DNA from: a phage
Direction: 5' to 3' (one strand)
Length of the DNA stretch: 64,000 nucleotides
Sequence record: PZ386957.1
The notes under the pieces: generated by a model
What the model saw: only the letters and a program-made list of their open reading frames with translations
The model's database searches: none
Told to the model about the DNA's origin: nothing
Made by a program: the position numbers and the translations under genes
Shown: positions 2,857-54,391 of the stretch, piece by piece
Position numbering within the stretch: position 1 is the stretch's first letter
Layout of the letters: each line of letters starts with the position of its first letter

Positions 2857-3094
2857 TCACATTCTGGGTAATATCAGCAATCTTACGGGATACGATGTTT
2901 GTTAGCCCCTCTTTGGTGATATTTTCACGATCAAATGGGATTTCGTCATGAGTCCATAACCCAGAGTTAGACCGAAATGATAGCATATACTGACCATCTC
3001 GTACAACCTCAAATACATGGATCTTAGTGAACTTCGCTAAACCTTCGTTGATTTTGTTCAGTGCATCAGTAATCATAATATAACCTCCAATCAA
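2831..3094 (-). CDS. Hypothetical protein
   Basis: 87-aa ORF directly downstream of a promoter/stem-loop module at 3104-3132. Confidence 0.5.
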   Translation of the reverse strand: MIGGYIMITDALNKINEGLAKFTKIHVFEVVRDGQYMLSFRSNSGLWTHDEIPFDRENITKEGLTNIVSRKIADITQNVIARESWSM

Positions 3095-3103
3095 TTTTTA
3101 GAG

Positions 3104-3132
3104 AGTATAACGGGGATTTCTCCCCGCGTCAA
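3104..3132 (-). promoter_or_regulatory. Sigma70-like promoter, TTGACG-17-TATACT, spacer is inverted repeat CGGGGAGAAATCCCCG
   Basis: Read on minus strand directly after the gp47 stop; followed by RBS GGAGG and ATG of 2831-3094. Confidence 0.6.
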
Positions 3133-4158
3133 CTAATTTTTTGCGCTATTTACTTCGGCTAAAAGTTCATCAGAAATACGCTTGACCGCCGCAAGTTCTT
3201 CCGGTTCTAGGTTTTGTTCTTCCAGATATTCATAGACCATCTGAATAGTGCTTTTAACCTCAATAACACCAGTTTCCTGTGATGCGCTACTCTCCAGCTT
3301 ATGGACCACTTTTAGCTTGTGTACAACGGCCTCTAACGCGCTTTCTAACTTAGTTAACCCATTATCAGCGACCGTTGCGATAAGACGCACACTAAGCCCC
3401 TTATAGCGTTCTACATCGATTTTATCATCTGACGGGTAAGTGATACGCACATGATAAGTTTTGTCGTTCTGGATAAACTCTTTTTTGTGTGTATCGGTAT
3501 CAAATACCCAAAAACCACGCGGATCATTTTCGTCACCAGCCGTTAGTGTGTATGGTGTACCGATATACGTTACGTTACCGCCATCACTGATAGTATGAAA
3601 GTGACCAGAAAACACTTCACGGTATTTCTTGAGGAAGTCCGCGCTATAACCTTCGGATTTTAACCCTTTATAGAAATAGTAACCGGACAATTCCCAATGA
3701 CCTACACAATATTCGCTAAATGAATTTTGAATAAACTCTAAAACCTCGGATTTATTGTCATCACAAAACCACGGGAACAGGTCGAATGATACCCCGTCAA
3801 AGCTAACGGTTTCCGGCTTATCAATGACCTTAATGCAATCATACTGGCTTAACACTTCACGCGGTGCGTTAGGCTGGATCTTGTTTCGTTTAAACATATC
3901 ATGATTGCCTACCGTGATATAACAGGTGATTCCTGCCTCTTCCAGTAATGGGATGACCTTAGTACGGTTAAATTTCATGGTTTCATGAGTTATCGCCTTG
4001 CGGCAATCAAACCAATCCCCTGTCTGAATCCATGTCTTAATATCATGTTCTTTTGAGTATTCAACCGCTTTCTTGATGGTATCAAGAATATAATCATGTA
4101 CCCACGGATCATCGCCACCGATACCAGTATGCAGATCACCCAAAAGCAAAATTTTCAT
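3133..4158 (-). CDS. 47: Recombination endonuclease subunit gp47 (SbcD/Mre11-like phosphoesterase)
   Basis: 341 aa; calcineurin-like motifs LGDLHTG, TGDWFD, GNHDMF; T4 gp47 is about 339 aa. Confidence 0.9.
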   Translation of the reverse strand: MKILLLGDLHTGIGGDDPWVHDYILDTIKKAVEYSKEHDIKTWIQTGDWFDCRKAITHETMKFNRTKVIPLLEEAGITCYITVGNHDMFKRNKIQPNAPREVLSQYDCIKVIDKPETVSFDGVSFDLFPWFCDDNKSEVLEFIQNSFSEYCVGHWELSGYYFYKGLKSEGYSADFLKKYREVFSGHFHTISDGGNVTYIGTPYTLTAGDENDPRGFWVFDTDTHKKEFIQNDKTYHVRITYPSDDKIDVERYKGLSVRLIATVADNGLTKLESALEAVVHKLKVVHKLESSASQETGVIEVKSTIQMVYEYLEEQNLEPEELAAVKRISDELLAEVNSAKN

Positions 4159-4197
4159 AGTCTCTTCCTCTCTTCGTTTTCGATGCTCTCACTATAT

Positions 4198-4226
4198 CAT
4201 AGAAAAATAAAAAGGGAAACCCCTTT
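4198..4226 (-). terminator. Putative intrinsic terminator (weak stem)
   Basis: Hairpin AAAGGG-GTTT-CCCTTT followed by TTATTTTT on minus strand. Confidence 0.4.
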
Positions 4227-4248
4227 CAGAGTCTCCCTTATAAAGCCA

Positions 4249-4536
4249 TTACAGCATACTTAATACCGTTTGACGTGTACTAACCCACATAGCGGAAAGC
4301 AGTTCTGGAGTGTGTGGCTGTTTGTAGATATCACGTAATTTTCCGATAGCGTAGATATACGCATCACGGTTATCATCGATGATAGCTTGTTCAGCCCACC
4401 GCTTAAGGCGTGCAATCTCTCGCGAGTTCTTACGCAAGATCTTTTCCGCTTTCTTAGCGGCTTTCGCCTCTAGTTCTGCTTGTACTTTGTCTACTTCATT
4501 CACTACAATCTGGTCATGTTGTTCATCGTAAGTCAT
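4249..4536 (-). CDS. Hypothetical protein
   Basis: 95-aa ORF in the slot where T4 carries a-gt; charged/helical composition. Confidence 0.5.
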   Translation of the reverse strand: MTYDEQHDQIVVNEVDKVQAELEAKAAKKAEKILRKNSREIARLKRWAEQAIIDDNRDAYIYAIGKLRDIYKQPHTPELLSAMWVSTRQTVLSML

Positions 4537-16868: not shown

Positions 16869-17162
16869 TTAACCATGAATCTTGTTTTTGACTACAAAGG
16901 ATCGGAACTCATCAAAGCCACCAATATAATCACCATCATAGAAAATCTGCGGCATGGTGGCAATAACTTCTACCCCTGCGCGATCCTGAATATCGGCAAT
17001 GATAGAATCAATCTTTACAGGGCGACCGTTTTCGTCCACACCATCATTAACCGGAATGTAGATGTAAGGGATCTTACGCGCTTCACAAAGGCGCTTTGCA
17101 TTCTGGCAATACTTACAGTTGTAACCTTCAAAACCAAAAATTTCTACCATGTTATACCTCAA
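16869..17162 (-). CDS. nrdC: Thioredoxin/glutaredoxin NrdC
   Basis: CKYCQNAKRL active site and MPQIF..IGGFD, matching T4 NrdC pattern. Confidence 0.85.
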   Translation of the reverse strand: MRYNMVEIFGFEGYNCKYCQNAKRLCEARKIPYIYIPVNDGVDENGRPVKIDSIIADIQDRAGVEVIATMPQIFYDGDYIGGFDEFRSFVVKNKIHG

Positions 17163-17971
17163 TCTACGTTAGTTACATAAACTTCTTGCGTATCAGAAGA
17201 CTTGCCACCTGAACGATCTAGGCAATAGGTCTTATTCAACAGGACGCAGTTTAAATCATTCCGCTTGATAAAATCAAGCAAATGGTTGTTAACTTTCCCT
17301 TTGTGGTGAGTAACATTGCTTAATCCAAACTTAGTACCGCTAGACATTAATGATTCTATCCACATGTAGAATTTAATCTCTTCTTCTTCACTCCAGAACT
17401 TATTATATTCTGCCGACGTGATCCAATATGGCGGGTCCAAATAAACGAAATCACCGGGCAAGATCTCGATCTCGTCATAACGACCAGACGTAAAATTGAT
17501 TCGACCGTCTTTGTTTTCTTCTTTAAAATTCAGGACACGCTCTACCGCGTTTTCGTTAAAAGTCCGGCGACCAAAATTAGCATTAAATTCGCCCTTTCGG
17601 TTATGGCGGTTAATGTTGCTAAAACTATGCTGAATCAGAACAAACAGAGATAGCGGATCTGGATTCTCGTTATACTTCTTGCGGAATGCCATATAAGAAT
17701 CTTTATCATCACGAGACAAACCATTCTCGGCAATAATCCGCTTGATCGTAGAAACCGGATCAGGGCACTCGTCAATCGCTTTGTAAGCATCAATTAAGCG
17801 GTGATCATAGTCATTAGCCAGAACATCCCCTTCGACGTACAGAGACACGCTCAAACCGCCACAAAAGGCATCGACAAAGCGGTTATAGTGCTTAGGGAAA
17901 TACTTACTAACACCTGGCAATAACTTTTCCTTATTGCCAGTATAGGGAATTAAACCTAATGCTTTCTTCAT
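17159..17971 (-). CDS. dam: DNA adenine methyltransferase Dam (alpha-class N6-adenine MTase)
   Basis: 270 aa; N-terminal FCGGLSV SAM motif, C-terminal DPPY catalytic motif, YNKFWSEEEE; closely matches T4 Dam. Confidence 0.9.
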   Translation of the reverse strand: MKKALGLIPYTGNKEKLLPGVSKYFPKHYNRFVDAFCGGLSVSLYVEGDVLANDYDHRLIDAYKAIDECPDPVSTIKRIIAENGLSRDDKDSYMAFRKKYNENPDPLSLFVLIQHSFSNINRHNRKGEFNANFGRRTFNENAVERVLNFKEENKDGRINFTSGRYDEIEILPGDFVYLDPPYWITSAEYNKFWSEEEEIKFYMWIESLMSSGTKFGLSNVTHHKGKVNNHLLDFIKRNDLNCVLLNKTYCLDRSGGKSSDTQEVYVTNVD

Positions 17972-24443: not shown

Positions 24444-26591
24444 TTATTCTCGTCCATTTGTATAGTAGTGTTTGAATCGCCCATAGCCAGTTTCAATAGA
24501 CATATCTTTCTGTCGGACAATCGCCCAATAGCCATTGCATGAATCTTGCAAATACAGATCCTTACCTTTTAGGAACTCGTTAAAGATCGTAATCTGCCAA
24601 TCATAATAGACGGCATCAGCGAGACTATCCATCCAACCATGTGGATCATCCATCAGTTCGACAAGCTCATCGATAACCCAATATGGACACGGGCTAAATT
24701 TACCTTTACTAAAATCATTGAACAAGGTAACAAGTTTAACTTCCGGTCGCGGTTCATCCGGCTGCACAGGTCGTTTATTAACCACAACCTGTACATATTT
24801 CGTATACCCGATGATTTCGCCGGAGTCAAGAGTATCGTTATTGTTCTTATCTGCATAAGCCACAAAACGATAAACACCGGAATCATTTATTGTTGCATTA
24901 GCTTTACGGTAAATCGGCACGCGAGAATCAGCAATAGGTAATTTAACACCAGCTTTGCTAAACTCATAGGTAGGTACATAATCAGCCGGAGGCTTCAACA
25001 TGGTAGCCTCAAGAACAAGCGGTTCACCTTCCGTAATCTGTACCGGATGCGGACCATCAAATTCCATATTAGGCACTACCTCAACATGGTAGGTAGCGCG
25101 TGCTGCAATATCGTAATCGGTATGCGCACTATATGGATCTTTACTCGGACTATCGCGGTATTCATGCGACCAGATACCGTTATGGTCTCGGTCTGCGGAA
25201 TCAGTGATCTTATACTCTTTCGCTTCAATAGGCAAATCTGCGACTTTAACATCATTTTTCAGAATTACTAATGAACGCGTTTGAGTCGGATCACCGCTTG
25301 CTGGCGGTTCTGGATCGACGATCTTAATTACAATCGGTTCACCAATCTCAATATTACGATAATCATATTCTTTATCGTAAATGTCAAGCATACGGCGGTC
25401 ATAGAACAAAGGACGTCCGGTCGGTGTTCTCTGCGGATCATCATCACGCGCGGGAGCCACCAACAGTTGAAGTGCTACGCTATCGTCATATTGCAATTCA
25501 TTAAGCGTAATGCGGTCATATCCCGGATCACCGTATTTCTTGCTTTGGAGTTGCTTACCGCCTAGCATCCACGTAAAGTAAACATTATTTGCAAGCATAC
25601 CATAATGGCGGTTCCATGAGTTATCCGCTGGTAATACTGGCATATCAAAGTTTACTTCCGATCCAGAAGGATAACGAAATTCGATTGCTGCAAAGTCATT
25701 ACGGAAAAATTCGTTTTCCTTAACTTTGACAGTAAATCGGTGTCGCTGCCCTTCAATGAATGATTCACCAGCACCAGGTCCATTAACCACTTTATAGGAG
25801 CGAACGCAAGCTACATATTCACCTGCATCATTTTCGGTAGCATGTTTGGTTGCATAGAGTGTTTTGTTGGTAGACTCATAAACAAGAGTACCGTCGCCAC
25901 GCTCTAAGCGATACCTTACAATGGTATGCTCTGCGTCATTAGGCGCATCATCTTCTACCGTGAAATAAGCTGGTGCATATTTCTGGACATTGAATACTGC
26001 GGGATTTTCCTTAATATCGGCAACAAACGGATAAACAAATTTAACGTCGCCGTGTTCGTCGCTCAATTCCATTCGGTAATTACCGGAAAATTCAGGCCAT
26101 GCAAATTTTGCAATTTTAAATTCACGATGGTCTAATCCCAGATCACCATCAATGGAATCAACGAGGCCATTATTATAATACAGGTCAACCGAAATATTAG
26201 CCGGAATATTACTACGGAAAACAATTTTTGCTTTAATTTCATCACCAATATCAAAAGACGTTGGAGGATGAACATATTCGACAAAGACATTATCGAATAA
26301 ACTAAAGGTAAAGTTTTCCGTGCCGATATCTACGGATTCGCCAGAAAAATTTTCATCATCTTGCGCATAACCACGAAGGTTAACAGACCATCCGGTTTTA
26401 TCCTCTTCTTTCACTGAATCCAATACATAGGAAGGAGTTGCAGTAGTCGCAATGACCTTATTGTCTTTCTTCCACGTAAAACCCTTTTTAGGTTTAGTTG
26501 GTTCAGGGGATTCCCCAGCAAGGGAACAAGCGAAAGTATGAGGAAGCCAAATGGTAGTATTAACGCTAGTATCTTTATTTTCTACTGGCAT
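24444..26591 (-). CDS. Large protein with Ig-like repeat signatures
   Basis: 715 aa; repeated D.G.Y.C motifs (DAGEYVACV, DSGVYRFVA) typical of Ig-like beta-sandwich domains. Confidence 0.6.
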   Translation of the reverse strand: MPVENKDTSVNTTIWLPHTFACSLAGESPEPTKPKKGFTWKKDNKVIATTATPSYVLDSVKEEDKTGWSVNLRGYAQDDENFSGESVDIGTENFTFSLFDNVFVEYVHPPTSFDIGDEIKAKIVFRSNIPANISVDLYYNNGLVDSIDGDLGLDHREFKIAKFAWPEFSGNYRMELSDEHGDVKFVYPFVADIKENPAVFNVQKYAPAYFTVEDDAPNDAEHTIVRYRLERGDGTLVYESTNKTLYATKHATENDAGEYVACVRSYKVVNGPGAGESFIEGQRHRFTVKVKENEFFRNDFAAIEFRYPSGSEVNFDMPVLPADNSWNRHYGMLANNVYFTWMLGGKQLQSKKYGDPGYDRITLNELQYDDSVALQLLVAPARDDDPQRTPTGRPLFYDRRMLDIYDKEYDYRNIEIGEPIVIKIVDPEPPASGDPTQTRSLVILKNDVKVADLPIEAKEYKITDSADRDHNGIWSHEYRDSPSKDPYSAHTDYDIAARATYHVEVVPNMEFDGPHPVQITEGEPLVLEATMLKPPADYVPTYEFSKAGVKLPIADSRVPIYRKANATINDSGVYRFVAYADKNNNDTLDSGEIIGYTKYVQVVVNKRPVQPDEPRPEVKLVTLFNDFSKGKFSPCPYWVIDELVELMDDPHGWMDSLADAVYYDWQITIFNEFLKGKDLYLQDSCNGYWAIVRQKDMSIETGYGRFKHYYTNGRE

Positions 26592-42980: not shown

Positions 42981-42988
42981 TATAAATA
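42981..42988 (+). promoter_or_regulatory. T4 late-type promoter TATAAATA (gene 53)
   Basis: Exact TATAAATA about 24 nt upstream of the gene 53 ATG. Confidence 0.6.
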
Positions 42989-45392: not shown

Positions 45393-45959
45393 ATGGTTGA
45401 AATTCTTCCGATGAGTTCAAAATTGGAGGATATCAGCGAGCGAGAACTCTTTGAGGTGGTGTTCTCTTATAAAGCAACGCCACCGGATGCAAATACCACA
45501 TACACGATTAAAGAGTTTAAGATCAGCGAGTATCGCCCTAATAAGGGCGTTACCGTTGAAGAAACTAAAATATCTGGTGAGTATCTGGATAGTTTTTCGC
45601 TTGGCGCGGATTCTCTTAAATATATAACGAAAGATCGAATTAAAAAATCTGCCGGAAGTTTTGATGATTTACCAGATCCAACTACCGCAGATCTATATTA
45701 TTTTAACGCTCCTACACGTCTACAGGAGGTTTATACTTATAAAGTAACCCTAACCTATATCCAATCTGTTTCAGAGTCTTCTGGGGGTTCTGGTGAAGGA
45801 AATAGTGGTGGTTCCAATAGCCGAGAGGGTGCTGGTGAAACTAATCCGCCTCCGGTAGTAACAGAGCACACAATAGAGAAAGTTTATACTCAAACCGTTT
45901 TTGGAAATTGGGATGTGTGGGCGCAACAACTAAGAGACTATGTACATAGGGGTGTTTAA
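45393..45959 (+). CDS. Hypothetical protein (5.1 position), Ser/Gly-rich C-terminal region
   Basis: 188-aa ORF between gp5 and the PAAR protein. Confidence 0.45.
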
Positions 45960-46252
45960 TGGCTGGATTATCATATGACAAAGCACGAACAACCGGACAT
46001 GAACAATTTCCACCCACGATAATTAATGCATCACAATCTAAGGTATTCGTTGAAGGTATTCCGGTATTAGTGGAAGGTGATTCTATAATTCCACATACAC
46101 GAACAGTTAAGCCCTATGATACACACGGAGGAACTACCGTAGCCAGTACCCCGAAAGTATTTGTTACCGGAAAGAAAGCAATTCAAATGGCAGATCGTAT
46201 TAGCTGTGGCGATACCGTCGCTATGGCATCTTCTAAGGTTTATATAAGGTAG
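45959..46252 (+). CDS. 5.4: PAAR-repeat spike tip protein gp5.4
   Basis: 97 aa (same as T4 gp5.4); PAAR-like repeats [15 protein letters not shown] and [19 protein letters not shown]. Confidence 0.8.
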
Positions 46253-46256
46253 TAAC

Positions 46257-46811
46257 ATGAAAGAAAACGTCATTCATTACACAGAAGAAGACCGTAATTT
46301 TTATAACGAACTTCATAATGCTTTCGTCTATGATGATGGTATTCTTTATTGGAAACATACAAGATCGAATCGTATAAAACCCGGCGACATTGCAGGTGTG
46401 TTATGGACAAACAATAAAACCGGATATTCTAGTTGGAAGATCGGATTTAATGGCAAGAAATATCATCGGTCATTACTGGTTTATGTTATGCACTATGGAC
46501 ATATACCAACGGCTTCTCAAGTTATCGACCATATAAACAACACATCAACGAATGACAGAATAGAAAATTTGCGGGTCACAACCCAGCATCAAAATACTCA
46601 GAATAAGTCGAAGGCGAGAAATAAAACCAATGGAAAATACAAGGGTGTGTTTTTAACCAAAAACGGAAGATGGAAAACCCAGATTGTCGTGAATGGTCGA
46701 TGTGTTTACTTAGGAACATTTGACTGTGAAGAAACCGCCGCAAAAGAATACAACAAAGCTGCAACTCATTATTTTGGTGAGTATGCGAAATTGAACGAAT
46801 TAAGGGTATAA
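46257..46811 (+). CDS. HNH homing endonuclease with AP2 DNA-binding domain
   Basis: 184 aa; HNH motif IDHINNTSTNDRIENLRVTTQHQN; AP2-like YKGVF..GRWKTQIVVNGRCVYLGTFDCEETAAKEYNKAA; inserted between 5.4 and 6. Confidence 0.8.
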   Translation: MKENVIHYTEEDRNFYNELHNAFVYDDGILYWKHTRSNRIKPGDIAGVLWTNNKTGYSSWKIGFNGKKYHRSLLVYVMHYGHIPTASQVIDHINNTSTNDRIENLRVTTQHQNTQNKSKARNKTNGKYKGVFLTKNGRWKTQIVVNGRCVYLGTFDCEETAAKEYNKAATHYFGEYAKLNELRV

Positions 46812-46812
46812 A

Positions 46813-48717
46813 ATGACAAAGCAAAAGATTACACAAATTCCTGATATTTTTAATGCTGCTACATTCGATGAAATTAAAAGCGCATTAACAGACTGGATGA
46901 GAAACCAGGAAGAATTTAAAGATTTTGATTTTAATGGTGCTGGTATTAACGTATTGATGGACTTGCTTGCATATAACACTCTGTATATTCAGCAATTCGC
47001 TAACGCCGCTCTATATGAATCTTTTATCAGAACGGCAATTAAGCGTAGTTCAGTTGTTCAAGCCGCGCAAGATTTAGGATATTTGCCAGCGAGTAAAACT
47101 AGTGCATCAACTACTATTATGTTGCACGTATCACATCCGCGAAATCCGGCAAGTATTCGAATCCCACGAGGAACTAAATTTATTGCAAGTGTGGATCGCC
47201 AGACTTCTTACCCATTTGTTACTACAGAAGACGTTGTGAGCGTTTTAGGTTCAAATGGTTTATATACGCCTATGCTTAAAGTCGCACAAGGTCGTATCGT
47301 TAGAACAGAAATGTTATTCGATCCTAAAAAGCAAATTCTGATCCGCGATCCAGATATTGACCGCGCTCAGGTTAAATTGTGGGTGGATGGTGCTGAATGG
47401 AAAGACTGGACACGAGAAAGTATTGTTAATGCAACTGGCGCTAGTAATATTTTCTATATGCGCGAAACCGTAGACGGACATACAGAAATTTTCTTTGGTG
47501 AAGGTGAATCAACTTTATCTGCTGCTGGCGGTGCACTGGAAGCAAATTATATTGGTGGACTTAAGCCGTCAACTGGTGCTAATATTGTTATCGAATATAT
47601 CAGCACTAAAGGCGCGGAAGCTAACGGATCTGTCAATTTCACATACGCGGATACATTGTCATCTATCTCTATTGTTAAAATTATTGAGAATCCGACAAAT
47701 GATCGTGATTATGTCGGTGCTGATGGTGGCGGTGATCCTGAATCAATCGAACGTATTCGTGAACTTGCTCCGGTAATGCGTGAATCTCAGCGTCGTTGTG
47801 TAACTGCTTCCGACTATGAGGCTTTTGTTTCAAGCCGATTTGGTAGTATTGTTCAGGCGGTACAATGTTTCACCGATCGAGAAAAACCTGGTTATGCTTT
47901 TGTTGCTGTTAAGCCTAAATCTGGTTTGCGCTTGACAACTGTTCAAAAAGAAGATATGCGGGATTATCTGGCAAAATATAATCTTGCTCCTATCACGCCG
48001 AGCATCATTGACCCTAACTATCTGTATATTAAACAGAATATTAAAGTTTCCTATTCAATCAATGACTTGTCAGAATCAGAGCAGTGGTTGCGCGGTGCGG
48101 TTATTGATCAGATTGATGCATACTATACCGATGAAGTGGAAATTTTTAACCAGACCTTTAGTAAGTCTAAAATGCTTGCGCGTATTGACAAAGCCGATGT
48201 TTCTGTGATAGGTTCTAGTGCAGAGATTGAAATGGTGCGTGAAATTGACAATTTCTATAAAGCGCCTATGGCTGGCATCAAATTTTTAAACCAGTATAAG
48301 AGCGGTGTTAAATCAAGTTCGTTTAACTTTGAGAAAGACGGGAAGCAATATCCGATCCACTATGTGAGCACCGAAATGGACACCGAAAGCGGATTGGCTA
48401 AAATGCTGGTTGGACCATTCCCTGTAGGGGCAACAATAGCATTACCTCATTATGACGGCACTGATTTTGATAAAGAGACTATCGAAGGTGCGGATCTTTA
48501 CTTTGTGGTAGGTGAAGTTGACCATTACAATGATTTAATCTCATGGGATCTGGGTAGACTTAACATTCATTCCGATTTCTTCACTGGTTCTTATATTGAG
48601 TTGACAGCGAAGCCAATCGCTGATAACATCTTTACAAGAGACGGGTCATTGATTGTATTCGAAAATGATCTTCGTCCGCAGTATACAACTATTAGTCTGG
48701 AGGCAATTGCTCAATGA
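46813..48717 (+). CDS. 6: Baseplate wedge protein gp6
   Basis: 634 aa (T4 gp6 is 660 aa); conserved order. Confidence 0.85.
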   Translation: MTKQKITQIPDIFNAATFDEIKSALTDWMRNQEEFKDFDFNGAGINVLMDLLAYNTLYIQQFANAALYESFIRTAIKRSSVVQAAQDLGYLPASKTSASTTIMLHVSHPRNPASIRIPRGTKFIASVDRQTSYPFVTTEDVVSVLGSNGLYTPMLKVAQGRIVRTEMLFDPKKQILIRDPDIDRAQVKLWVDGAEWKDWTRESIVNATGASNIFYMRETVDGHTEIFFGEGESTLSAAGGALEANYIGGLKPSTGANIVIEYISTKGAEANGSVNFTYADTLSSISIVKIIENPTNDRDYVGADGGGDPESIERIRELAPVMRESQRRCVTASDYEAFVSSRFGSIVQAVQCFTDREKPGYAFVAVKPKSGLRLTTVQKEDMRDYLAKYNLAPITPSIIDPNYLYIKQNIKVSYSINDLSESEQWLRGAVIDQIDAYYTDEVEIFNQTFSKSKMLARIDKADVSVIGSSAEIEMVREIDNFYKAPMAGIKFLNQYKSGVKSSSFNFEKDGKQYPIHYVSTEMDTESGLAKMLVGPFPVGATIALPHYDGTDFDKETIEGADLYFVVGEVDHYNDLISWDLGRLNIHSDFFTGSYIELTAKPIADNIFTRDGSLIVFENDLRPQYTTISLEAIAQ

Positions 48718-51700
48718 TTAAAGCGCCTAGTGTTACCAGCTTGACAATTGAAAAATTGTCTGCAAATCAGGCGTATATCACATGGGATGACGTAGGCGAA
48801 AACTTCTTTTATTTTGTGGAGTTAGCCGAAACCAGAACTCAAGACGGGGAGGAAATCCCCGTCGAGGAATTGACATGGGTCAATCTGGGATATACAGCCG
48901 ATAATAACTGGTTTGAAGATAAAAACTTATTCCCTGAATATTTTTACAAGTTCAGGGTAGCTGTTGCCGCAGAAGGGTTTGAACAAAGCAAATGGATCGA
49001 AACAGAAGAATTTCAGACATTTGCGACCAATGCTTATAACTTCTCTATGATGCGTGAATTTAATCTCGCGAATGAGTTTGTTAAACAAAAATTTACTTTG
49101 GATAATCGGGATTATATCAAGTTTAATACTGACTTGATTCAAGCGTCATTGATGAAAGAAGATTTTATCTTTAGTCCAGAATATGCGAATATTACAAATA
49201 TCGCCGATAAAATCATTGTAGATGAGAACTTTCATGAGATCCAAGATCACATAGAAAAAGTCTGTACAGACATTAACCGCACTATGTTAGCGGAAATGAA
49301 CGGCGTGCTATATCTCTTCGAACGTTTTCAGCCGATTGTCAAAGTATCCAATGACAAAGGTCAGACATGGAAAGCATATAAGGCATTCAATGACCGTGTA
49401 GGCAATCCAGTTTCCAGAACATGCGTTTATCAGTCTAAGACGACTACTTACGTGCTAGGGTATGACCGTATATTTTATGGACGACAAGCAAGCGATACTC
49501 GCTGGAGTGCCGACGATGTGCGGTTTAGTGATGATACTATCACATTTGCTAAAATTGGCGATGAGAATGACTTAGGCTTTGATGTTGAAGTCTTTGGTGT
49601 GTTTGCTCGATTGACTGGCGATACCACGAAATACGCCGAAGCAATGGCGTGTAATGACGCTTATTTGTGGGTTGGTGCTAAAGACATTATCCGTCGTATT
49701 CGTCTTACTAATACCCCGGTCGATACCGTGCAAGGATCACCGACTTTCGGGGAGAAGATATTCGATCCTGATGTTATTCGTGTTACTGGTAATGATAAAG
49801 CAGTAATTCAGAAAATGGATGTGGTAGACGGGCAATTATTGGTCTTTGTTACTGGTGAAGTAAAACAGAGATATCAAGATCCGACTAAACCGGAAAACGT
49901 GATTCCGTCCGAGGATGCTGGTGTATATCTTATGGTTGAAGATGGTCTGTCTTTTATTCGTGTATTCGGGAATACCCCAGAAGAACGTGAATACATTCAG
50001 CACGGATTTAGTAACATGTCAACCAATGGTGATGAGGCGTTTATTAGCCATTATAATCATCATTTCGGGGCAATATTACCTGATCCAGAAACTGCCGCAA
50101 AATATGACGGGTTAAGTGCTGCTGTAAAATATTCTCAGGAGCCAACTTATCTAACTGATAAGAAAATTCATCAAACGACATTCCGCGCAAGCTACGATGA
50201 CCTGCGTATGTGGCAATTAGGACCGCAATCCTATTACAATGAGGCCGATTATACATGGATGCGTCGAAATGGTGTGCGAGTATGGATCACTAATGATAAT
50301 AGACCACTGGTTGTTTATCCAGAGGTAGTGTACACTCAGGAAGTAGATCCAACTGGTATTGCTGATGAAAACAGAATTAATAAAGAAGTTTACGATAAAG
50401 GAACAGTCACCTGCTACCTGAATAATGTTAAATTTGAAGGATTCAAACAATATGCATCCGGTGTAATGTTCCATAAGAACACAGGGGAGATCATAGGATT
50501 CTATCAATTTAACTATCGTGTTCGCGACCAAGTTGGTGTATACTGGAAGCCTACTAATGTTGCATTCATCGCAGAATTGCAAAATCAGGTTCGTGAAGTT
50601 CCGTGGGTTCCCGTTCACTATGAGCGTGAATTAGATCCAGATTTACGACCTTTATTGAATAAAATGTCACCGGATAGTTTCTTGCTGGATAATGACGGAT
50701 TCAGAAAATTCTCTGAATATTATCTGCAATTCTTAAGTGATGGTTCCGGCACATATTATAATAAATTAAAAAATCTGATTAAGAACAAATACCCGCGCGA
50801 GCAAGATGCATATGAGTATCTTTGGTCAGAGATGAATAAACGAAATATCTATGCAGATAAAAACAAGCGAGATGCGGTAGTAAGATTCTTTGAATCCCGT
50901 AAATCAGATTTTTATTCCACTAAAGGTGTGGAGGCTTCTTATAAGTTCCTGTTTAAGCTACTTTATAACGAAGATGTAGAAATTGAGGTTGAATCTCAAG
51001 CCGGATTAGAATATGATATTGTGGTTAGTTCGACAAACATTGATGAGGATATTGTAGGCCGCACGATCTATACCCCAACCGGACGGGCTAATGTCACTTA
51101 TCTTGAAAGGGAATATGAAGGAGGTCGCTTGCGTTGGCGAATTACTATTCATAACCTGATTGGACGATTCGAAGAAGGACAGGAGATCAAGTCAGAAAAG
51201 ACTGGTTTTGAGGGTATGATCCTTGTTGGTGTACGTGGTAAAGAGTTGTTGAGTAGTTCAATTGACTATATCAACCGTTCACGCAGCCAATACACCATGA
51301 AGATTAAAAGTGCATTACCAGTTTCGCGCTATGCGAATGATGTAATGCGATTCGTTCATCCGGTAGGTTTTGGATTCATCGGTGTTACCCTGCTTACGAT
51401 GTTCATTAACAGCGGGTTAAGTTTGAAACATACAGAGACGATTATTAATACTCTGAAAAACTATAAATTTGACAGCGGATTGCCTAGCGTGTATCCTGAT
51501 CGAGTTGCTGATCTTGATGTTGATGGAAATATCAAGAAAGATCCTTTGACTGGTAAATCGCTGTATCTTGACGCACCAAATGCAGGACAAGATTTTCCGG
51601 TTCCGGCAAGTTATGATAAAGAGAATAGCGAATTGTTCTATGGACGAAAAGCAAGCGAACGACGATTTGCAATGAGTCCTCTTTTTGATCAATCTGCTGT

Positions 51701-54355: not shown

Positions 54356-54391
54356 TTTATAAATAACATATCATAACAAGAGGATTTAATA

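Follow-up and report, generated by a model that had tools for sequence, protein, structure and literature searches.

What placed a gene for a nuclease-like protein between the spike-tip gene 5.4 and the baseplate wedge gene 6 of a T4-type phage, and can that gene still move? The DNA considered here, called the window below, is a stretch of 64,000 nucleotides (record PZ386957.1, one strand), which database comparison identified as the genome of a Krischvirus, an RB49-like coliphage. The gene is an open reading frame on the + strand (46257..46811) that runs from ATG to TAA and encodes 184 amino acids; the ORF call together with Pfam, PHROG, PADLOC and an AF2 model led to its annotation as a probable free-standing HNH-AP2 homing endonuclease gene. 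Upstream lies gene 5.4 (45959..46252, +), which encodes a PAAR spike-tip protein of 97 aa (PAAR_motif 4.3e-10, PHROG 281) and whose 3′ end would serve as the left homology arm and as part of the conversion tract. Downstream lies gene 6 (46813..48717, +), identified by five gp6-specific Pfam domains with E values from 1e-20 to 1e-44. The spacing is tight: only 4 nt (TAAC, 46253-46256) separate 5.4 from the endonuclease gene and a single A (46812) separates the latter from gene 6, so the gaps of 5 and 2 nt given in a preliminary description of this DNA need correction. The same description regarded the junction as contiguous in the T4 backbone. The contiguity is real, as 5.4 and 6 of T4 are adjacent with 8 nt between them; the genome itself is RB49-like and not T4. 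In our judgement, with a probability of roughly 0.8, the gene is a free-standing HNH-AP2 homing endonuclease gene within a 564-bp promoter-less cassette that homes into the 5.4/6 junction.

The domain composition of the protein is the first support for this reading. Pfam HNH_3 matched residues 72-114 (E 1.8e-10; 40.7 bits against a cut-off of 24.8), PHROG 99, ‘HNH endonuclease’, matched at 2.5e-48, and the PADLOC ‘homing endonuclease’ model gave a weak match (6.5e-5); NCBIfam contained no model for the protein. The Pfam AP2 match at residues 127-171 scored 29.6 bits, slightly under its cut-off of 33.3. Nonetheless, the AP2 assignment is secure despite this sub-threshold score, because both sequence and fold comparisons with the PDB lead to the same domain. 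A phmmer search of PDB sequences with the 184-aa protein found the plant AP2/ERF proteins WRI1 (6.9e-12) and TEM1 (7e-8), a profile of the family matched the solved plant AP2 domains of WRI1, TEM1, ERF096 and ERF1 at 5e-21 to 4e-8, and Foldseek superposed the C-terminal part of the model on the AP2 domains of TEM1 and ERF1 with an rmsd of 1.5-2.0 Å over 58 columns at 38-43% identity. A single small protein thus combines an HNH nuclease at its N terminus with an AP2 domain at its C terminus, which is the layout of the HNH-AP2 class.

The predicted structure divides the protein into three parts. The AF2 model built on a 22-sequence alignment is confident (pLDDT 90.4, pTM 0.77), while single-sequence AlphaFold reached a pLDDT of only 31. 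In the N-terminal part, helix 10-22 is followed by strands within 23-70, and this β-rich domain (residues about 10-70; 46284..46466, +) probably contacts DNA as its counterpart in I-HmuI does. Its assignment draws on the predicted fold, on a profile alignment covering I-HmuI residues 15-101, and on Foldseek, which paired the N-terminal part with I-HmuI (1u3e) over 97 columns at a probability of 1.0. The HNH or His-Me finger core (residues 72-114; 46470..46598, +) shows the ββα-metal fold, with strands 88-92 and 105-109 and then helix 110-114. The AP2 domain (residues about 127-180; 46635..46796, +) consists of three strands (131-133, 139-145, 148-155) and helix 158-176. By sequence, I-HmuI of phage SPO1 was not reached in the phmmer search of PDB sequences with the single protein; a profile was required, and that of the N-terminal 120 residues matched it with an E value of 4.4e-7.

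The alignment with I-HmuI also shows that the catalytic residues are in place; the preliminary description had named their absence as grounds for rejecting its reading. D91-H92 correspond to D74-H75 of I-HmuI, N104 to N87, N113 to the metal ligand N96, and N116 to N99. In the I-HmuI structure H75 is reportedly the general base, and D74 and N96 are said to bind the metal. Among 22 homologues D91, H92 and N104 are invariant and N116 is present in 20; all four are unchanged in the eight allelic variants of the endonuclease, every one of which is full length. One residue departs from the pattern. The central Asn of the HNH motif, Asn83 in I-HmuI, aligns with Asp100, and Asn99 adjoins it, so that the consensus ‘DN’ reads ‘ND’. 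This replacement of the structural Asn could affect nuclease activity; D or C also occupies the equivalent position in other family members.

Comparison with related phages established that the gene is an insertion. Relative to the empty RB49-type junction, 564 bp have been added (46248..46811, +), as derived from the junction alignment and from span differences; the edges are ambiguous by 4 nt owing to an ATAA at either end. The stretch between 5.1 and 6, both included, accordingly measures 3325 bp when occupied and 2761 bp when empty. When the 3.3-kb occupied interval was used as a query, 58 records matched with 92-94% identity and a coverage of 83% or more, and phage Whisky (MZ504878) alone reached 100% coverage. 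A 141-bp query representing the empty junction was uninterrupted in 58 of the 59 Krischvirus records of the phage collection (100% identical in 36, at least 95.7% in the rest), and Whisky was the sole record in which it was split, the two parts spanning 705 bp, i.e., 141 + 564 bp. The endonuclease ORF alone, searched as DNA, likewise found only Whisky (97.3%), where the gene is annotated simply as ‘hypothetical protein’. The comparison of the 5.4-6 junction proposed in the preliminary description therefore reveals a presence/absence polymorphism, and universal presence of the gene at this locus is ruled out. In the empty junctions of RB49, GEC-3S, KFS-EC and phiS, 5.4 and 6 overlap in ATGA; around the insertion both genes keep their full length. 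Searches within the window found no paralogue of the endonuclease, and the empty-site sequence does not recur elsewhere in it.

Outside the phage collection the allele is represented sparingly. A 98%-identical protein occupies the same 5.4/6 position on a 168-kb ENA metagenome scaffold, and the cluster formed at 90% identity holds seven distinct full-length sequences on at least 47 contigs, with no exact copy of the window protein on record. A scan of IMG/VR returned no relative, and a scan of JGI metagenomes returned two, at 36-40% identity on short contigs. Such rarity of the allele is odd for an efficient homing element. The wider family is very common, since 1789 phage records contain a relative by tblastn (E < 1e-8); the closest homologue outside the protein's own cluster, of the KFS-EC type, shares 42% identity with it.

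The edges of the insertion were inspected for signs of its mode of entry. Beyond the 4-nt ATAA, neither terminal inverted repeats nor a target duplication was found there. The absence of both favors recombination over transposition, and a transposon reading was rejected for want of transposon-like ends. The flanks were then compared among three carriers (the window, Whisky and the ENA scaffold) and four non-carriers (RB49, GEC-3S, KFS-EC and phiS). All substitutions that distinguish carriers from non-carriers fall within the final 13 nt of 5.4 (46240..46252, +), where the variable-site table and the protein ends show VFIK* recoded to VYIR* in all carriers and in no non-carrier examined. The recoded end also supplies the AAGG ribosome-binding site of the endonuclease gene (46246-46249, 7 nt ahead of its ATG). 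Farther to the left, sites −21, −20 and −18 are common to the window and the ENA scaffold and are not shared by Whisky; hence the left-hand end of the conversion tract differs among carriers. On the right, 400 nt of gene 6 contained no change that separates carriers from non-carriers in the seven genomes, and its first 150 nt are almost invariant, with four variable sites.

A second feature of the left flank has to be kept apart from this tract. Over its 5′ two-thirds, 5.4 of the window matches other Krischvirus genomes at only 73-78% identity, against 97-98% for 5.1. It was asked whether this divergent block is a simple conversion tract of the cassette, and the idea was rejected: about 90 nt lie between the block and the insertion, and in this stretch none of the six other genomes differs from the window. 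Nor is the divergent allele tied to the cassette, for the 5.4 allele that accompanies it in Whisky is an ordinary one.

The substitution rates fit movement between genetic backgrounds. Between carriers the endonuclease gene has a pS of 0.05-0.07, and the adjacent 5.4 of the window and Whisky differ with a pS of 0.41, so that nearly the same cassette has come to sit beside very different 5.4 alleles. These alleles, taken together with the differing conversion ends, point to transfer between backgrounds. Moreover, the cassette occurs with a neighboring 246-aa HNH gene at 5.1/5.4 in Whisky and the ENA scaffold and without it in the window. In these three carrier genomes, the pattern is indirect evidence of lateral movement of the cassette with co-conversion of its flanks. 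The gene itself appears to be under purifying selection, with pN/pS values of 0.1-0.2 that derive from only 3-8 substitutions per class.

The same data bear on whether the gene might be a homing endonuclease by descent that is no longer mobile, a stranded or decaying copy that a small sub-lineage has inherited vertically and whose site-specific activity is weak or lost. Its presence in 1 of 59 GenBank Krischvirus records, its absence from IMG/VR, its merely distant JGI relatives and the Asp100 replacement would all suit such a copy. A decaying gene would hardly be expected, however, to remain full length with every motif residue intact in 8 of 8 variants, or to show a pN/pS of 0.1-0.2; and vertical descent accords poorly with a cassette found beside such different 5.4 alleles, with differing conversion ends, and both with and without the 246-aa HNH gene. 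We consider loss of mobility improbable on this account.

How such a gene would be expressed was examined from the signals around it. Sigma-70-like and terminator-like sites around the endonuclease gene were not above shuffled expectation, and no T4 late-promoter consensus was found within or just before the cassette; for these two reasons a model in which the gene has its own promoter was dropped. The consensus has four matches in the window, a count not above chance. The only upstream match on the + strand, TATAAATA at 42981..42988, lies before gene 53 and was assigned as a T4-type late promoter by position only; the next match is at 54358. The cassette is thus best described as promoter-less, and its transcript likely comes from the promoter at 42981 as part of the late baseplate operon. 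Seven seg and mob genes of T4, segC and mobE included, have also been described as promoter-less cassettes (PMC2988022). For translation, the 3′ end of the endonuclease ORF contains an AAGGG sequence (46802..46806, +), read from the sequence as a ribosome-binding site 6 nt before the gp6 ATG (46813).

Taken together, these observations suggest the following course of events. The cassette would be co-transcribed with the late baseplate operon (53-5-5.1-5.4-HNH-6-7...), and the endonuclease would be translated from its own AAGG site, and the cassette would provide gene 6 with a substitute ribosome-binding site. When a carrier and an empty-junction relative infect the same cell, the AP2 domain and the N-terminal β domain may bind at or near the highly conserved 5.4/6 junction, and the enzyme, through its one HNH site (D91/H92/N113 and a divalent metal), would nick one strand in the manner of MobA, MobE and I-HmuI. 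The nick could become a recombinogenic break through replication or processing, and the phage recombination machinery would repair this break from the carrier genome, copying the cassette and a variable stretch of 5.4 into the recipient. The outcome would be intronless homing with co-conversion, i.e., localized marker exclusion. That the cassette may mediate marker exclusion, as the preliminary description suggested, receives some indirect support from the recoded 13 nt found in carriers and from the differing ends of their conversion tracts. We propose that two changes shield the carrier: its junction is interrupted by the insertion, and the 13 nt at the end of its 5.4 have been recoded. Free-standing homing endonucleases can cut far from their own gene (PMC2988022). 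A target in gene 6 would leave carriers without sequence-based immunity, since the 400 nt compared contain no carrier-specific changes.

The domains, the intact catalytic residues and the insertion polymorphism thus uphold the homing endonuclease assignment made in the preliminary description. The gene could instead encode a domesticated protein, either a nuclease directed against co-infecting relatives or satellites or an AP2-based regulator of the late baseplate genes. Precedents exist in the endonuclease-derived defensive genes of ICP1 and in the AP2 domains that gave rise to plant transcription factors (PMC10448857). Apparent purifying selection and the position within a late operon, tightly coupled to gene 6, are what a domesticated gene would show. 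Nearly all close relatives make baseplates without the gene, though, and the patchy paralogues at multiple sites form the classic pattern of a selfish element; for a pure regulator, the intact catalytic residues are a further difficulty. Domestication therefore seems to us distinctly unlikely.

Location directly downstream of the PAAR gene invites another thought, as the PAAR proteins of secretion systems are often linked to nuclease toxins: the protein might be a PAAR-associated effector of a type VI secretion-like kind that the spike tip carries into the host cell upon infection. Its domains speak otherwise, since the HNH_3 and AP2 combination is typical of homing endonucleases and no toxin-type HNH matched. 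There is no immunity ORF downstream, because gene 6 begins 1 nt past the stop codon; the PAAR protein is unchanged in length and has no adaptor domain; and paralogues lie at non-PAAR junctions such as dam/nrdC and 47/a-gt.4. Little weight can be given to an effector role. Many phage HNH proteins of similar size serve packaging, but an accessory factor for terminase-dependent DNA packaging like HK97 gp74 is the least credible identity of all, for the gene is not beside the terminase genes, T4-type phages use headful packaging without such a factor, 58 of 59 relatives lack the gene, and an AP2 domain with an I-HmuI-like architecture points elsewhere.

The homing endonuclease reading gains a wider setting when the whole interval from 5.1 to 6 is considered. 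Phages of the GEC-3S type carry, at 5.1/5.4, a 246-aa HNH protein with two AP2-like repeats (28% identity to the window protein), and phages of the KFS-EC type carry a 179-aa HNH-AP2 protein at the same junction. Judged by span, 13 of 58 records have one of these two endonuclease types alone, and Whisky has the GEC-3S-type gene in addition to the 5.4/6 cassette. Related HNH-AP2 genes occur in a patchy manner at no fewer than four other Krischvirus junctions, among them 47/a-gt.4 (RB49p040) and dam/nrdC (GEC-3S and others). The window has none of the HNH-AP2 genes of the 5.1/5.4, 47/a-gt.4 and dam/nrdC sites. These distributions show, at the level of genome comparison, that homing endonuclease genes are drawn again and again to the interval around the PAAR gene. 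The preliminary description had overlooked both this hotspot for several endonucleases between 5.1 and 6 and the earlier description of the HNH-AP2 class in RB49 (PMC1524935).

A more speculative view is that 5.4 is the ‘cargo’ of a small endonuclease island, bracketed in varied combinations by three HNH-AP2 genes, namely the two alternatives at 5.1/5.4 and the one at 5.4/6. The concept of ‘HEG islands’ (PMC10448857) provides the sense in which these genes may act. Within the local operon, 5.4 diverges far more than any other gene (pS 0.26-0.47), with 5.1 and the start of gene 6 being 96-98% identical, and if the island reading were true, competing cleavage and co-conversion would account for this divergence. 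A direct link to the 5.4/6 cassette is opposed by the stretch of roughly 90 nt that separates the insertion from the divergent block and is the same in seven genomes. We regard the island as a tentative proposal, more doubtful than probable; were it correct, the exchange of membrane-piercing tip alleles among phages would be actively driven by selfish nucleases.

The cassette extends by one the list of documented sites at which free-standing homing endonuclease genes are inserted in T4-type phages. It also offers a clean natural pair for studies of how HNH-AP2 enzymes locate and nick DNA: a carrier can be set beside about 58 sequenced non-carriers whose empty site is nearly identical. Finally, it is relevant to the exchange of baseplate and spike alleles and to the engineering of therapeutic RB49-like phages.

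A passage in a paper of 2006 points out ‘AP2-HNH mobile DNA elements’ in RB49 and RB43 (PMC1524935, citing Magnani et al. 2004), and the HNH-AP2 class was revisited in 2023 for ICP1-like phages (PMC10448857). The gene in the window shows all the traits of this class that can be assessed computationally. Our search of the literature on the class found no biochemically characterized member from a T4-type phage. The nearest described counterpart is ORF040c of RB49 (RB49p040, NP_891611), an ‘AP2 domain HNH endonuclease’ (PMC1524935) from the same genus, which has the same HNH-AP2 order and 184 aa and is also free-standing between conserved genes. It differs in sharing only 37% identity over 105 aa with the window protein and in residing at gene 47/a-gt.4, a junction that is empty in the window. 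The KFS-EC-type HNH protein (YP_010097159, 179 aa) is closer in sequence, with 42% identity over the full length and the same HNH-AP2 layout; its gene lies one gene upstream in the same operon and is patchily distributed too. That gene, however, is at the 5.1/5.4 site, overlaps the start of the downstream 5.4 ORF by 8 nt, and is absent from the window.

Among structurally characterized enzymes the comparison is with I-HmuI of the Bacillus phage SPO1 (PDB 1U3E). Its N-terminal β domain and HNH core are homologous to those of the window protein, in which the D-H general base and the Asn metal ligand are conserved. I-HmuI differs from the window protein in that its gene lies within a group I intron, in that the C-terminal region with which it binds DNA is helical and not AP2, and in having Asn83 as the structural residue where the window protein has Asp100. 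I-HmuI is a monomer with one active site and acts as a nicking enzyme (PMC2988022). In genomic habit the gene resembles mobA and mobE of T4, which are likewise free-standing HNH genes between conserved genes and promoter-less cassettes that rely on upstream transcripts; the C-terminal domains of MobA and MobE are not AP2, their loci are different, and no close sequence relationship was detected. By location it resembles segC of T4, which lies between 5.1 and 5.3 in the same 5.1-to-6 interval of the baseplate operon (PMC2988022), though SegC belongs to the unrelated GIY-YIG family, cuts both strands and occupies another junction. The IPA-HNH genes of ICP1-like vibriophages also combine an N-terminal HNH with a C-terminal AP2 domain and are tied to essential genes and to the boundaries of allele exchange (PMC10448857); their HNH is too divergent for Pfam HNH_3, whereas the window protein matches it clearly. 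As HNH-AP2 genes have been described in RB49 since 2004-2006, the present gene is a new member at a new site and not a new kind, and the 5.4/6 cassette is an ordinary mobile element that adds no new kind of system. What is newly described is modest in extent: the 5.4/6 insertion site, a rare allele there, and its place among endonuclease genes that surround the PAAR gene in various combinations.

The window diverges from its relatives on both sides of the HNH-AP2 endonuclease cassette. Downstream, at the 3′ end of gene 6 (48193-48692), the identity of the window falls to 74-89% with Whisky, RB49, GEC-3S and KFS-EC, while these four genomes are 96-99% identical among themselves. With Whisky, the only genome profiled beyond the 3′ end of gene 6, the identity remains at 77-87% from ~48850 onward, as far as the first half of gene 7. 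Judged from these identity profiles, the gp6 C-terminal and gp7 N-terminal region has undergone mosaic replacement at 48193-50200, a stretch made up of the gene 6 3′ end and the first half of gene 7.

Upstream of the cassette, a second divergent block was found in the 5′ two-thirds of gene 5.4, the PAAR gene (45900-46141). The identity of this block to other Krischvirus genomes is just 73-78%, the closest being phiS with 89%, and the changes are mostly synonymous (pS 0.34-0.47). Gene 5.1, immediately upstream, is 97-98% identical, and ~90 conserved nucleotides lie between the block and the cassette. The block adjoins the 5.1/5.4 junction, which is the insertion point of two other HNH genes in relatives. 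One of these, the 246-aa GEC-3S-type HNH, is present between 5.1 and 5.4 in both other carriers of the cassette, at 2134-2874 of the Whisky locus (L001) and at 2963-3703 of the ENA scaffold locus (L005). Evidently, 5.4 has an endonuclease gene on either side in these carriers, and the window holds only the downstream gene of this pair.

RNA folding predicts a stem, formed by pairing of GGCAUCUUCU (46225-46234) with AGAAGAAGACC (46283-46293), which surrounds both the ribosome-binding site of the cassette's endonuclease gene and its start codon. The fold has an MFE of −20.3 kcal/mol (z = −2.0), and equally good folds were obtained in 4 of 200 shuffles. The upstream arm holds the three substitutions near the 3′ end of 5.4 (positions −21, −20 and −18) that are common to the window and the ENA scaffold and absent from Whisky. 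On weak evidence, the predicted stem might act as a brake on translation of the endonuclease.

Apart from the endonuclease genes, a 715-aa ORF (24444-26591, minus strand) represents an insertion of ~2.0 kb when compared with RB49, where the corresponding stretch is 81 bp long. It is located between the gp38-adhesin neighbourhood and rI.-1, and its sole domain match is a weak, sub-threshold one to Ig_2.

HNH-AP2 genes also occur at other junctions in related phages. GEC-3S and other Krischvirus genomes (KMB43, ELT3, Sf20, PHB13 and more) carry a 41%-identical HNH-AP2 gene in the dam/nrdC interval. Judged by synteny with RB49, dam and nrdC stand side by side in the window (junction at ~17159-17162, within the region 16869-17971), so this endonuclease site is empty here. 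The junction between gene 47 (3133-4158, minus strand) and a-gt.4 (4249-4536, minus strand) shows a clean 565-bp absence in the window (4158-4249) relative to RB49, where it is occupied by RB49p040, a 184-aa HNH-AP2 gene. Thus, the window and RB49 each carry a different HNH-AP2 gene, at a site that is empty in the other phage.
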